Source: Eledone cirrhosa | Taxonomy: Eukaryota | Direction of reading: 5' to 3' | Assembly (NCBI GenBank): GCA_964016885.1 | Contig: OZ024748.1 | Coordinates: 50,406,001 to 50,470,000 of the forward strand | DNA length: 64,000 nt | Shown: piece after piece, positions 3,571 through 63,645 of the stretch | Layout of the letters: each line of letters starts with the position of its first letter | How positions within the stretch are numbered: the stretch's first letter is position 1 | Notes under the pieces: generated by a model | What the model saw: only the letters and a program-made list of their open reading frames with translations | Databases searched by the model: none | What the model was told of the DNA's origin: nothing | Made by a program: the position numbers and the translations under genes

Positions 3571-3990
3571 TACAATATTAAATAAATGGAAAACTATATT
3601 TATAAAACCATATTTATTTCATTATATATATTTCGGGGATATCATATTAACAATATGCTATGCCTTCATCAGACAAAATACAATATAAACAGTTTTATAG
3701 ATAAATATATTCGACATACCGTAATAAACATCAACTTCATTTGAAGAGGTTTACGCTATATATATTTATCTATAAAACTGTTTATATTGTATTTTGTCTG
3801 ATGAAGGCATAGCATATTGTTAATATGATATCCCCGAAATATATATAATGAAATAAATATGGTTTTATAAATATAGTTTTCCATTTATTTAATATTGTAA
3901 ATATACTCCAAATATTTGTCGAGTGCTTTTATATCAGTTATAAATATTTACTAGTTGTAACCCAACAATTTTAAATATAACTTTACATGT
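3571..3990 (+). mobile_element. Fold-back HHR-bearing element (family A) inserted in (TA)n
   Basis: 140-bp perfect inverted arms 3571-3710 / 3760-3899, then a ~90-bp tail ending at (TA)n. Related copies at 8228-8510 and 35537-35633. Confidence 0.8.
3791..3854 (+). ncRNA. Type I hammerhead ribozyme motif (mirror copy on - strand at 3616-3679)
   Basis: attttgt-CTGATGA-aggcatagcatatt-gtt-aatatgatatcccc-GAA-ATATATAT-A-atgaaat. Helix I is 7 bp with wobbles, helix II is imperfect, helix III is palindromic. Confidence 0.65.
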
Positions 3991-6382
3991 ATATATATAT
4001 ATATATATATATATATATATATATATATATATATATATATATATATATATATATATATATATATATATATATATATATATATATATATATATATATATTT
4101 ATACACATATAAGTCTGTGTATGTGTGCATGTGTGTATGTCAATGTATGTTTACATATATACATACATAAAACCTGCGTAAGAATTGTGTATTTTAAGAG
4201 ATCGTTACTACTGTAGAAGACACGGTTTTGATTTCAGTAAGATTATTATGAATTCTATAAAAGCGAGGATAAAGCTTACAATATATTGGAGACTCACACA
4301 AATGCGCAAAAAAGAGATATATGCTGTTGTATAAATGAGATATAACCCATAGAAAATGGTCATATGATAGATATCTATATATACATACCTATATACAAAT
4401 ATATATATATATATATATATATATATATATATATATATATGCATATATGTATAAATATGTGGGTTTAAATAGATATACATACACATATATACGAACAACA
4501 CTTAAACTCATTCACATACATACATATATGACGATTCATTCGATGTAACTATATATCGTCTGTAATATAGTTTTCTCTGCTACATACAATTTAGCCTCTC
4601 TCTCTCTCTCCCTCTCTCTCTCTCTCTCTCTCTCTCTCTCTCTCTCTATATATATATATATATATATATATATATATATATATATATATATATACATATA
4701 TACATATATATATACATATATATACATATATCTATATATATATATATGTATATATATATACATATATATATAGATATATGTATATATATATAAGTATATA
4801 CATATATACATATATATATATATATATATATATATATATATATATATATATATATATATATATATATATATATATATATATATATATATATATATACATA
4901 TATACATATATATATATATATATATATTTACATATATATATATATATATATACACTATAAATATGTCACAAGGAAGAGAAAGTAGCAAACACAAGTGAAT
5001 AGTAATCAGTATCACACAATATTTCTGAAATAATATAAAAAATACTGCCACCAACCAACAACCAACAACCAACAACAAACACCAAATGGCAGAAAAACGA
5101 TAAATTACGTATTATCTCTACTTATTTCCTTAACACTGGATATGCTGTTGCTGTTGGTTGTGGTCGTGCATTAGCATTCAGAAGTTATACACTTTAGCTG
5201 AAGGAAGGAATGAAATTCTTCATGTTAGTATCGCTTTCTTTTCGTATATATTCTTGAATTTTTTGCTATATTTTTTCCTTTTCAGAGGTAATATTTTTCA
5301 TTTTATTTTTACATCTGACACTTACTCTAACGTACTAAGTTGATTTGAACTAAATTTATGTAGACACCAATGGAAAATATAAAACCAAAATACAATATAA
5401 TACACGAACACACTAGAAATTGTAATATATTGATGGAAACAACAACAACGGAAAATATCAACAACAATACCAACAACAACAACGGCAAACGTCATCAACA
5501 ACAACATCATCATCAACAAAATTATCATCATCAACAACAACAACCAGAAATATAAACTACACCGGCAGTGGGCAGCAAAGCATAAAAAAAGGAAATAAGT
5601 CACCAAGAATGTACAACACAATAACAAAAGCAAAGACACAATAACAACAACTGTGAAGGAAGTACAACAAAAAACAAGATCAACTATAACAACAACAACA
5701 ATACTAAGACCAATCTGGCAATGTTTTACTTATGACTTCGTAAAGCATCATATTATAAAAAGAAAAACAACAATAACAAAAACAGCAATAACAACAACGA
5801 TATCGAAACTAACCTGGCAATGTTTTACTTTTGACTTCGTAAAGCATCATGTAAAAAAATCCAAAAACAGATTCTACAAGGAATGTAGAAATATAGGAAT
5901 GTTACAATATTAGAAAATGGGAATATTGAATTATTGTACTAAATTGTGACCACTTTAAACGAAGCCTTGATGTTTATTATTTGCAGAACATTAACAGGAA
6001 ATATATTATTTATAGAACCACACTACATTCTACAATAAGTTATTTTATTTTATGTTGCCCGAAGTCAACGAGGAATGTCTTTGAACATTGGTCTCCTCAA
6101 TCAGAGCTGTCCTGGGCCTAAACAACAAAAACACAAAACATTACTGTACAACAGGAAAATTCACTCTACACTGTACATCCGTGAAATACGAAGAAGTGGG
6201 GAAACATGTTAGACATAGCAGTCAAATAAAACTCAAATTACACTTAAGCAAATGCCTTAAAAAGAGAAATGAAACCTGTGATAGCAAGAACCAATTTACT
6301 CCAAAATTAACGGTATTTCGTTGTCAACTTCCATATACATTTAGAGAGAGAAGTCATTTTATGTTTCTTAATATGTCAAAGT

Positions 6383-60022: not shown

Positions 60023-62575
60023 TAAACCACAACGTTAAAACCCCACAATTTCCTCGACTCTAAAGGTATGAATTGCAAAAATCTGTCAATATTACTACAT
60101 TTTAATCTACCATTATATGGAAGAAAACAGAGACTTCGGCAAGTCTAGGGTGATGTACTAATAAAAATTAATTCAGCTTTAAACAAAATGATATTTACGT
60201 TCTCGGCAAACTTGTCCTGTAAAAAAACAATTTAAAGAAAGAAAAAGGGAAAATCAAAACACAGTCGAAGGCAATCGGTGACCGACATTGTATTCTTTCA
60301 CGAAAGACCCAGCACAACGACATAGTGCTTGTCAAAGAAGTCAACAAGGGTCTTTCGTGACCAACCTGGTGTCGCAGGAAAGAAGGAAGTTGAGGAATTA
60401 ATACTCCTTTTGGCAAATGAGAACTGCATCCTTACAATCCCCTTGGTATAAGTATATTTAATGTTCCAGAAACTATCAATACTCTGAAACTCTCGTTACC
60501 GATTTTCGGATGATGAAAAAGAATGGAACATAGTATTTAGTACATAAACATTAATACATTAAAATGCTTAAGACTATAGCGTACACTGATTGGTTAATAT
60601 TGAGTAACATAAAAGAATATTGATTAACGTTGTAAAAGTTGTTTGAATATTAGGTGTCATATAGATACGAAATTATACAGGGTCGTACAGGGTCGAATGA
60701 ATTGCGTTACACTACTTCCAGTATTGAGTACTCTCCTTTCTTCCACGTCCAACCCCACCCATATATGCATACATATATATATACATATACATACACACAC
60801 ACACACACACACACACATATATATATATATATATATATATATATACATATATATATATATATATACAAACATGTACACAATCACAAGTACACAAACGCAT
60901 GAATATTTATATATATATGTATGCATATATATGTATTTTATATATACATACATATATATAAATATATTCATATTTATATATACATGTACATGTATATATA
61001 TATATATACACATACATATATACACGAATACACACACACACACACACATATATATATATATATAATATATATATATATATATATATATATATATATATGT
61101 AAATACATATAAATGAGGAATTATAAACTTGGCATAAATAACTAAAACTATAGATTGATATTCTCAGTTGTACTTGTTTATAGCATCACAACATCGCTTA
61201 TACAAATATAAACAATAAAAAAATTACACTACCAAGAATTATCTCCCTTCCAGTCCTTCCACTTAAAACATGACATAAAACATAACACAAGCAAAATACA
61301 AAAAATATATAAAAATTCCTAAAATAAAGAAACAAGCCAACAATGGAATATTCTAGAAGATACTCCAGAATTCTTTAATCTTGTTATTTTTGTCAGTAAA
61401 TATATATATTCGAGTCTAGATTCATTCATCACTGGAGCCATGCTGTTAAATTCAATTTCTTTCTTTGATTCCTATTCGCTCTTCTTATCGTTGTAAGATC
61501 ACTGTTGTTTCCGCAATACGTATATACTGTTGACTGGTTTTATACAGCTTCATAACATACATACACACACTAACAAACACAAGTGTATACATATACATAC
61601 ATGCATACATGCATATACGTGTATATATATATATATATATATATATATATACACACACACACACATATATATATATATATATATATGAATATATTTATAT
61701 ATATAAATATAATATATATATATATATGCATATATATATATATATATATATATATATATATGTGTGAATATATATATATATGTATACACAAATATATATA
61801 TATGCATATCTATATACATATATGTATATATATATACATATATATAAATACACACACACACACACACATATATATATAAAGCGCGTAAATGTGTGAGTTA
61901 TTTGTATTGAGTGAGGGAAATTAAGGTCTCTTTCTTATACAAAGGTCTCTTTCTTACAAGTTAACAAGTATTTACTAAGGAATATTTTCTTATATACTAT
62001 TGTTTTTGCAATATTATTTATTTCTATCCGTCTATCCTTCTAGCCCTTATTTCCTCTATATTCATCTATGTGGTTTGTTATACTTATATCTAGCTTTTTT
62101 ATACTTTAAGTGCCAAATTGCGCATGTCTGAAATCCCCTCCCCTCAATGAAGCAAAAAAAAAAAATTATATATATATCTCGCATTGATTCATGAAATATT
62201 TCATGTCCAGTATGTAAAATACTATTTAAAATTAATACATTTATCTGTCACACAAATGTTATAAAACATAAATGATGGGTATTTTTCTTCTCAGTGAAAA
62301 TATGTACATAAGAAACTTGTCTGGAATATGCAAAGTCTTTTGTTTTTTTCCATATGATGAATATATACATACATATGTATATATATATATATATATATAT
62401 ATATATATATATATATATATATATATATATATATATATATATATATATATATATATATATATATATATATATATATATATATATATATATATATATATAT
62501 ATATATATATATATATATATATATATATATTATATATATATATATATATATAATATATATATATAATATATAAGT

Positions 62576-63645
62576 ATGTATGTATACGTACATACATATA
62601 TGTATACAGACGTACAGTAGCATGCATATATATATATATATATATACATACAGGTACATATACATATATGCACGCATCAGTTTAGCGGACGCTTATTATA
62701 ACGCCGCTTTGTTCGTTTGTAAACAAACTGAACAGCCTGACTTTATGCCATACGGTGTTAAGGCAACCACGTCACCTTTTTGTTCAACACTGACACGGGA
62801 ACGATGTACTCGTTTCAAGCTTGTTAGCTATCATCAGCACCGTTTACCCATCTGCCAGATAGTTGAACGTTCGAAAGTATATACTTTCCTTATGAAAATT
62901 AACGGCTGAGCAGCCTAATTTGCATATTGAGTGAGTTAAATCGGTCAGGCATACCGAAAACGATAGGTTGAAATAAAATGAAAACGAAATTTCATTTCTC
63001 ACTCTTAGTATGGCACTTACTTAAATGTAAGTACGTATGTATACGTACATACATATATGTATACAGACGTACAGTAGCATGCATATATATATATATATAT
63101 ATATATATATATATATATATATATATATATATATATATATATATATATATATACATACAGGTACACATACATATATGCACGCATCAGTTTAGCGGACGCT
63201 TATCATAAGGAAAGTATATACTTTCGAACGTTCAACTATCTGGCAGATGGGTATACGGTGCTGATGATAGCTAACAAGCTTGAAACTAGTACATCGTTCC
63301 TGTGTCAGTGTTGAACAAAAAGGTGACGTGGTTGCCTTAACACCGTATGGCATAAAGTCAGGCTGTTCAGTTTGTTTACAAACGAACAAAGCGGCGTTAT
63401 AATAAGCGTCCGCTAAACTGATGCGTGCATATATGTATATGTACCTGTATGTATATATATATATATATATATATATATATATATATATATATATATATAT
63501 ATATATATATATATATATATATGCATGCTACTGTACGTCTGTATACATATATGTATGTACGTATACATACATACATACTTACATTTAAGTAAGTGCCATA
63601 CTAAGAGTGAGAAATGAAATTTCGTTTTCATTTTATTTCAACCTA
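62576..63645. mobile_element. Retrozyme/pLTR-like composite: ~1.2 tandem monomers (-) plus an inverted monomer (+)
   Basis: cagtttagcggacgcttat recurs at 62678 and 63185 (~507-bp period). 63204-63645 is the reverse complement of those segments. A related tail lies at ~34660-34770. Confidence 0.8.
62795..62843 (-). ncRNA. Type I hammerhead ribozyme motif (inverted copy on + at 63255-63303)
   Basis: acggtg-CTGATGA-t-agct-aaca-agct-t-GAA-ACGA-gtaca-TCGT-T-cccgt. Confidence 0.75.

Follow-up and report, generated by a model that had tools for sequence, protein, structure and literature searches.

The type I hammerhead ribozyme (HHR) motifs of the window, the 64-kb stretch of Eledone cirrhosa DNA analysed here, are very probably the 3' ends (pseudo-LTRs) of many Penelope-like element (PLE) families, mostly of the Hydra clade, together with tandem non-coding retrozymes. 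Both are joined to (TA)n at fixed sites, likely via target-primed reverse transcription from cuts in TA tracts. The motif, its copy numbers, the linkage of families A, C, D, F, and G to open reading frames (ORFs), the fixed junctions, and the occurrence of one end of each type per inverted insertion were observed directly. The initial annotation of this DNA had proposed about seven families; eight were found. Judged from their sequence features, four appear to be Hydra-clade PLE 3' ends, one Neptune-like, and two tandem retrozymes, and for one no donor was found. The wider proposal, a diverse PLE and retrozyme system with (TA)n as its insertion target and with inverted and partially tandem copies, is supported.

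All 11 sites listed in the initial annotation contained an HHR motif (11/11), and the positions given lay near the low end of each. A family-agnostic descriptor of the type I core (CUGANGA / GAAA / UH with helices I, II, and III) was passed by 8/11; the failing sites were those of family C at 17769, family F at 42846, and family D at 19390. Genomic copies of families C and F carry the type I core. In the window, 30 island-wise dinucleotide shuffles gave a mean of 0.17 and a maximum of 2 matches, and the reversed window gave 0. The descriptor was tuned on the window, where stricter versions matched 2 and 3 sites; hence, 39 evenly spaced 10-kb genome regions (390 kb) served as the independent test. 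This unselected DNA contained 46 matches, far above shuffled sequence (0, 0, 2, 1, and 0 in five shuffles) and reversed sequence (0). The density in the window (8 per 64 kb) equals that of this sample, so the motifs do not form a local collection as had been thought. The suspected orientation bias was borne out, with a (TA)n tract downstream within 250 nt in 32 of the 46 matches (background, 18%). The 3-8 core pair covaried (C3-G8, 39; U3-A8, 7; C-A, 0; U-G, 0), and two broken-core controls gave 0. The 338 unique descriptor matches fell into 39 clusters, 22 of which occurred in at least two loci, and different helices surrounded one core.

The Rfam hammerhead search, which the initial annotation had proposed, gave 0 window matches at the gathering score and 0 at E≤10 over the family E motif. 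Among the 150 of 550 E-value matches listed for the whole window, all were miRNA models on microsatellites. Strict minimal HHRs (without a helix III loop, helix I of at least 4 bp) numbered 0 in the random regions and the window, the minimum-free-energy folds of single motifs were mostly not HHR folds, and a relaxed tRNA scan returned noise. The HHR motifs are confirmed as genuine; their self-cleavage is predicted.

A (TA)n tract was found within 300 nt downstream of 59/61 copies of family A, 24/26 of B, 37/38 of C, 23/25 of D, 33/36 of F, and 26/29 of G (background, 23%). Element ends adjoined 71/604 TA tracts, versus 2/174 CA/TG and 2/60 GA/TC tracts; the reversed-flank control was 12/604. 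A recognised end touches at least 12% of TA tracts, and 18% of those of at least 30 bp. The ends meet (TA)n at fixed sites, with two alternative ends, short and long, 58-127 nt apart. In 107 of 115 inverted insertions, one arm used the short site and the other arm the long site. The tails are ~110 nt in family E and ~58 nt in family H. Past the junction, the element sequence continues with TA at 11 sites of families A, C, D, E, G, H, and P; that of F-short and I is AT-rich with less clean TA. The motifs had been placed 70-210 nt upstream of (TA)n. The close spacing held, the measured distance from cut site to next tract being 49-211 nt; it did not hold for family H, in which the tract lies inside the monomer and the true ends are ~250 and ~310 nt further on.

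Families A and C, and families F, G, and P in part, are probably Hydra-clade PLEs, a placement made by motifs and not by a tree with reference sequences. The motif definition was taken from the clade description of Craig et al. (2021, PMC8557442), and the (TA)n insertion and the HHR in the pseudo-LTR that mark the clade were found in A and C and in part in F, G, and P. HHRs are given below as first core base/last base before the predicted cut. Family A forms an inverted insertion at 3572..3989 between two (TA)n, of which the minus arm (3672/3623) ends at the short site and the plus arm (3798/3847) at the long site. In a further insertion at 8229..8509, the minus arm carries the HHR (8327/8278) with a short end, and an inverted tail-only arm (8408-8509) has the long end. 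The C-terminus of an ORF lay on the same strand 1.0-1.6 kb upstream in 16/68 anchors of A and 0.8-1.3 kb upstream in 7/141 anchors of C; the remaining anchors were mostly truncated or inside 3-kb loci. The A ORFs carry RWR, DKT, CxCX5C, and CxH. A C ORF of 710 aa (L242) carries the full Hydra set, namely an RWK-like motif, DKT, the CxCX5C linker, CxH, a C-terminal GIY-YIG, and YxDD. No Pfam match was obtained for the two Hydra-type ORFs. We considered A as the 3' end of the 777-aa family described below and rejected this, since the ORFs enclosed by A are of Hydra type and the 777-aa family carries a different HHR.

In the window, family C is represented by a 3' remnant without core between two (TA)n (9566..9675, plus), a Hydra-clade 3' end at 17577..17929 (minus; 17769/17685), an inverted insertion at 19586..19801 whose first core half is missing (long end on the left, short end on the right), and a 5'-truncated 3' end at 32649..32800 (plus) with the second core half only and its long end at (TA)n. 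The core at 17769 is decayed, as the initial annotation had recognised; intact copies have a U3-A8 core, a helix I of 4-5 bp, and a stable helix III. Family F includes a long-end tail without core (41562..41714, minus) and a Hydra-clade 3' end at 42761..42936 (plus; 42846/42884) with the short end at (TA)n. Its helix II is damaged at 42846 and intact in most of 25 genomic copies listed. An ORF link, to the endonuclease end only, was seen in 3/7 extended loci. Family G comprises a 3' remnant truncated within the HHR (17427..17544, minus; long end) and a copy at 51704..51866 (plus; 51802/51832; short end) with U.U at the base of helix II; the ORF link in 1/5 extended loci consists of Hydra-type ORF pieces inside one inverted copy (L348). 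Family P, absent from the initial annotation, has an HHR-shaped motif with A replacing U4 (40860..41219, minus; core ~40925) and a partial copy at ~24060-24132 (plus). It is Hydra ORF-linked, and its ORF shows the endonuclease end only.

Family D is the C-rich 3' UTR of a Neptune-like PLE (18135..19509, plus) that ends in a minimal HHR (19390/19417) and a single 3' junction to (TA)n. Helix II is 4 bp; helix I is at most 2 bp among 25 copies listed and so falls short of 4 bp. The D ORF (DKG / CX2-5CxxC) was linked in 8/36 anchors. No inversion was found in 23 loci, and on the 5' side most alignments break at one diverged place. We rejected D as the end of a Naiad element, as its ORF has a C-terminal endonuclease. 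The decayed PLE ORF at 27450..29767 (plus), with RT and endonuclease region, many stops and frameshifts, and tblastn pieces at 27624-29646, yielded no HHR at its 3' end. It is ~73% identical over a 69-aa query to a young 777-aa family with 7,881 candidates, many of them open frames. The HHR of the 777-aa family lies outside the families found in the window; its helix I is weak and its tail is ~35 nt. D, the 777-aa family, and the relic share DKG, a GxKF/Y-like motif, a CX2-5CxxC linker before GIY-YIG, and an RVT_1 match, which points to Neptune-clade-type PLEs, although the motif alone cannot separate Neptune from Nematis. The relic had been taken as the type of RT donor. This is not supported for most families: the relic is Neptune-like, whereas the ORFs linked to A, C, F, and G are of the Hydra clade and that of D, though Neptune-like, is a different one.

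As in non-LTR retrozymes, families E and H consist of tandemly repeated non-coding units, each a few hundred bases long and bearing a single type I HHR. The E copy at 26171..26645 (plus) consists of an inverted tail (26171-26279, long end) and the greater part of a 483-bp monomer, whose short end adjoins (TA)n; its HHR (26497/26570) has a palindromic helix III. Elsewhere, E occurs in tandem arrays. The inverted H copy at 62566..63645 has a minus arm (62837/62807) with the short end and a plus arm (63261/63291) with the long end at 63645. Its monomer is ~460-540 bp with internal (TA)n, and arrays elsewhere reach 9+2 units. An ORF lay upstream in 1/43 E and 3/54 H anchors; both H cases looked at more closely proved to be independent insertions on either side of a TA tract. 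H was rejected as the pseudo-LTR of a neighbouring Hydra ORF, since that ORF ends in family P. The old family B copy (9728..10088, minus; 9989/9940) has its long end at (TA)n, and its best relatives are 74-80% identical. No donor ORF was found for B in 26 anchors or eight extended loci. The expected link of families to PLE ORFs was thus obtained for A, C, D, F, and G and not for B, E, and H. Two further families occur: a decayed inverted remnant of family O at 23490..23590, a further HHR family absent from the initial annotation with a U3-A8 core in intact copies, and a 3' end of family I without core (1425..1560, plus) with a second, shorter piece at 1965-1995, outside the range annotated initially.

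Copy numbers were determined by pattern search; a DNA search with the AT-rich A motif missed even its own locus. Genome-wide matches numbered 9,066 for family A (control, 0), 90,514 for the 3' half of C (control, 0), 6,354 for D, 3,473 for F, 7,410 for G, and 17,098 for H. The islands are not single-copy, each of the eight window families having thousands of genomic copies. One HHR core pattern gave 145,990 matches versus 16,687 in the control, an excess of about 129,000 for that one subclass; extrapolation gives a total HHR load of ~350,000, or ~1 per 8.5 kb. PLE families and their non-coding passengers in TA repeats account for well over 100,000 insertions in this genome, and nearly all copies are dead insertion scars. 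Within the window, much of the apparently unique DNA had been attributed to this system. Remnants delimited by hand, with the 2.3 kb decayed ORF and a number of pieces of no assigned family counted in, cover 9,033 of 43,392 non-tandem bases (21%), which does not bear out that attribution.

Several other explanations were weighed. The most serious, which we regard as unlikely, accepts the placement described above and holds that many HHRs no longer cleave, the fold instead helping to bind or position the PLE protein near the start sites. Family D is without a usable helix I and yet retains the core, helix II, and the GAAACGUC palindrome, and its motif is kept with 0-3 changes in 8/8 full-length copies recovered by 3' flank outside the D search. 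The weak helix I of the 777-aa family, the A at position 4 in family P, and the account of Frangieh et al. (2024, PMC11167929), in which cleavage required protein and was dispensable for insertion, point the same way. However, the strictly covarying 3-8 pair is a catalytic-core pair, helix I is 4-8 bp in most families, and related retrozyme HHRs are described as cleaving in vitro (PMC7229834).

It is quite improbable that the element appends the (TA)n as a tail, or that the tract expanded later, instead of having been present beforehand as a target. Since an inverted insertion has a 3' end on either side, flanking TA on both sides is not by itself proof of targeting, and the H monomer has an internal TA tract; against this, 5'-truncated E copies with differing breakpoints also adjoin TA (8/11), no extra TA occurs at internal array units or tandem junctions, and different families are stacked on common tracts. 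Slightly less probable still is that all are short non-autonomous families moved by the Neptune-like type at 27.45 kb. The young, abundant 777-aa family might serve E, H, or B in trans; but Hydra ORFs of their own accompany A, C, F, and G, and D likewise has a separate ORF, which refutes the idea for A, C, D, and F. In addition, the 777-aa elements carry an HHR of their own, and their tail is shorter than in E and H. Chance matches in AT-rich DNA might be suspected from the short AT-rich helices and from the Rfam and folding results; the shuffle and reversed controls, the covariation, and the copy numbers refute this reading, to which we give next to no credence.

We therefore favour PLE and retrozyme 3' ends inserted in TA tracts, and propose the following mechanism. 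The PLE protein would cut both strands of a TA tract, and the two nicks would prime at different start sites, one short and one long, each at an RNA TA dinucleotide. The predicted cut lies upstream of both start sites, so the template would have to be circular or a tandem transcript left uncleaved. Synthesis of both cDNAs would proceed toward the 5' end and usually stop after no more than a few hundred bases; their joining would yield the inverted remnants. By cutting tandem transcripts, the HHR would yield monomers or circles; with the short palindromic helix III, cleavage in most families would probably occur as a dimer. More tentatively, and with somewhat less than even confidence, we suggest a combined reading: that this is the densest known HHR load (~350,000 at ~1/8.5 kb, in dozens of Hydra-dominated families), that in each insertion one PLE complex uses two coupled, TA-matched start sites on a single RNA to prime both target strands, that E and H are carried by the same Hydra machinery, and that P is a natural U4A hammerhead. 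If true, coupled two-site priming explains PLE inversions and tails in one step.

These copies form a very large natural data set for how PLEs build inverted and tailed ends, which also bears on the machinery that moves retrozymes. For an in vitro Hydra assay, the one-short-one-long rule makes a sharp prediction, and the near-intact Hydra ORFs in this genome would allow it to be run. Rfam was blind to every motif, and the most abundant family (U3-A8) would escape a search limited to CUGANGA; thus, ribozyme counts in such genomes are badly underestimated. Given the share of TA tracts that touch an element end, the elements shape the microsatellite landscape.

Earlier publications already describe PLE hammerheads, Hydra (TA)n targeting, the one-sided tail, and retrozymes. 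The scale, the near-strict one-short-one-long rule, and retrozymes obeying the same rule are new; the U3-A8 core and the U.U closing of helix II were considered as new variants and dropped, both being already published. The Hydra-clade PLEs described in PMC8557442 share with those here the C-terminal GIY-YIG, RW[KR], DKT, and CxCX5C, a canonical HHR, (TA)n insertion, an inverted 5'-truncated arm, and a tail at one end. That description has few families, generally <3 kb, and gives 30-40 bp for PLE tails; here there are many families with tens of thousands of ends, the family A unit is ~4 kb, and tails are 65-100 nt. The Neptune-clade motifs DKG, GxK/RF, and the CX2-5CxxC linker are shared by D and the 777-aa family, which also end at (TA)n; D differs by its one 3' junction, the lack of inversion in the 23 loci, and almost no helix I.

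In the PLE HHRs reported by Cervera and de la Pena (2014, PMC4209133), as here, dispersed single motifs from truncated PLEs and opposite-strand pairs occur, with an extra base after A9, palindromic helix III, a U3-A8 covariant, and a 2-bp helix I in one family. Their counts are 2,000-9,000 per genome, compared with ~129,000 above control for one subclass here, and the U4A core of family P is not among the variants set out in the portion of that account considered. Non-LTR retrozymes, in the descriptions of Cervera and de la Pena (2020, PMC7229834) and Li et al. (2026, preprint 10.64898/2026.07.22.740005), resemble E and H as non-coding tandem units with one type I HHR each, and their HHR_Amex2 has U.U at the base of helix II. 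E and H differ from the retrozymes of the passages considered by 460-540 bp units in (TA)n and PLE-type inverted arms with short and long ends. The Poseidon element PAc, as presented by Frangieh et al. (PMC11167929), likewise has a pair of internal RT start sites lying 3' of the HHR, with the intervening stretch forming the tail, and both target strands are cut and extended, as would also be the case here. For PAc, that account gives no strand difference in start-site use and no target homology, whereas here one of each start site is used per insertion and both begin with TA.

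All 11 sites that the initial annotation had read as type I hammerhead ribozymes (HHRs) proved to carry HHR-type motifs, here grouped as families A to H. The descriptor required helix I (at least 4 bp), helix II, and helix III (palindromic or paired), together with GAAA, UH, and a core with C3-G8 or U3-A8. It matched the window eight times, against a mean of 0.17 and a maximum of 2 in 30 shuffles. Because the descriptor had been tuned on the window, an independent test was performed on 39 evenly spaced 10-kb regions. The excess over shuffled sequence held there, with 46 matches against 0-2 in shuffled and none in reversed sequence. 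The matches fell in 19 of the 39 regions, one array supplying six. In the same scan, cores that were broken or had positions 3 and 8 unpaired gave no match. None of the window's HHR motifs was matched in Rfam.

Family patterns were then counted across the 3.0-Gb genome. Matches numbered 9,066 for A, 90,514 for C (second half of the motif), 6,354 for D, 3,473 for F, 7,410 for G, and 17,098 for H, with a control count of 0 in each case; E (2,036) and B (2,952) are first-look candidates. A generic pattern for one HHR subclass gave 145,990 matches vs 16,687 in the control. The sampled regions are representative, since their 18 matches in 390 kb predict about 138,000 for this subclass. Extrapolation puts the HHR total at 353,000 (bootstrap 215,000-499,000). 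In all retrieved DNA, much of which was family-selected, 338 unique matches formed 39 clusters, 22 of them present in at least two loci. Approximately 32% of the window is tandem repeat; a pyrimidine-rich short tandem repeat of about 1.9 kb (55643-57586) has long open frames in three phases.

Distances from the predicted cut to (TA)n were bimodal, at 99/188 nt in A, 40/120 in C, 96/207 in E, 72/171 in F, and about 50/114 in G; the two ends are offset by approximately 58 in H and 127 in B. In inverted insertions, one arm carried the short and the other the long end in 25/25 cases for A, 41/46 for C, 12/13 for E, 12/13 for F, 11/12 for G, and 6/6 for H (judged by eye). Overall, this was 107 of 115, vs 50% expected under independence, and the eight exceptions may include mispaired neighbours. 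Family D has a single end and showed no inversion in 23 loci. In 18 of 27 pairs the two arms of A did not differ over 97 nt, and in all 27 they had the same base at a variable core position (16 G, 11 T). This identity fits a single RNA, but also a single source locus or later conversion. Two palindromic insertions of another repeat family (6633-6812 and 26790-27075) terminate at TA and are probably inverted Penelope-like element (PLE) ends lacking the first core half.

The association with (TA)n was likewise upheld: a tract lay within 300 nt downstream of 88-97% of genomic copies of A, B, C, D, F, and G, against a background of 23%. For E the figure was only 29/46, because inner array units lack the tract; in H the first downstream TA tract is internal to the unit. 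A library of ends from 16 families, built with the random regions excluded, was tested on those regions. Its ends adjoined 71/604 TA tracts (control, 12/604), 2/174 CA/TG tracts, and 2/60 GA/TC tracts. Element sequence beyond the junction mostly begins with TA, some sites being known from one or two copies. Among E copies with differing 5' breakpoints, 8 of 11 adjoin TA (two of these being one duplicated segment), which favours (TA)n being the target rather than an appended tail. The window also has many copies of a SINE-like repeat, about 190 bp long and apparently tRNA-derived, that is independent of TA tracts (47413-47607 and more than a dozen further places, including 9326, 10561, 13577, 22234, 36946, 40442, 45723, 54953, and 57660). 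A second SINE-like repeat occupies 24809-25128, 52714-53037, and 59890-60034.

With (TA)n as target, both strands of the tract would be cut, target-primed reverse transcription likely following, and each nick would prime from one or the other of two internal start sites. As both start sites lie beyond the predicted cut, the template would be uncleaved tandem RNA or circular RNA. HHR cleavage is predicted to yield monomers or circles.

The C-linked ORF (L242, open for 710 aa) contains RWR, DKT, YRDD, CxCX5C, and CxH, motifs also found in A-linked ORFs and matching the marks of Hydra elements published in PMC8557442. D forms the end of a 4.7-kb unit that has DKG and CX2-5CxxC motifs and lies between direct pseudo-LTRs. 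E (unit 483 bp) and H (460-540 bp) form arrays without an ORF of their own and fit non-LTR retrozymes; Hydra machinery for them is only suggested, tail length being the sole pointer. Three duplications of a segment of about 5-6 kb that includes an E array (L052-L055 and L129-L130, G000:C17:7.69-7.71 Mb) differ in array length, which indicates that arrays alter length after insertion. Family B is old, and its anchors and extended loci yielded no donor ORF.

The relic at 27.45 kb is Neptune-like. Its young relatives terminate in a U3-A8 HHR of their own; no copy of this HHR turned up in the window. These relatives (L091-L104, L128) have many open 777-aa frames, an HHR with a weak helix I, a tail of about 35 nt, and a 3' UTR that is mostly TG/TA microsatellite, so that the family itself disperses microsatellite-like DNA. 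In this family, too, there are two ends, separated by about 35 nt; two ends are thus not unique to Hydra. Further PLE-type ORFs of other lineages (L232, L235, L238, L347, L355), DKG-type and without the Hydra linker, indicate that several PLE groups coexist in the genome. Elsewhere in the window, 30286-31378 is a LINE-type RT fragment (RVT_1 at 30604-31008, E 6e-05), and 47630-49207 (near 48.1-49.3 kb) appears by eye to be a second decayed RT-like stretch.

A further family, P, has an HHR-shaped motif at 40860-41219 (-) and 24060-24132 (+), and at L160 and L245. The motif follows an open frame encoding a Hydra endonuclease. Helix I is 5 bp, helix III is 3 bp, and core position 4 is A. CAGAAGA occurs in 15 of the 28 copies listed, several others being truncated. 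By its sequence, P is possibly a natural U4A hammerhead variant.

Much of this has precedent in published work. PMC4209133 describes the hammerheads of PLEs and dispersed solo motifs, as well as the U3-A8 pair and a circle model. Hydra insertion in (TA)n, inverted arms, and a frequently one-sided tail are described in PMC8557442, whose supplement (Craig et al.) has one (TA)n-targeting Hydra family in Octopus bimaculoides; two start sites in PMC11167929; and retrozymes and their PLE origin in PMC7229834, PMC7761336, and a 2026 preprint (10.64898/2026.07.22.740005). A search covering little of the subscription literature found no publication on the HHR load of such a genome or on strict end pairing. 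For comparison, minimal motifs number 2,000-9,000 in schistosome, coelacanth, and Xenopus according to PMC4209133, and 126,247 motifs are published for axolotl; the load here is not claimed as a record. The HHR feature is genuine and its members are new but of known kinds; what stands out is its scale and the near-strict rule of one short and one long end.
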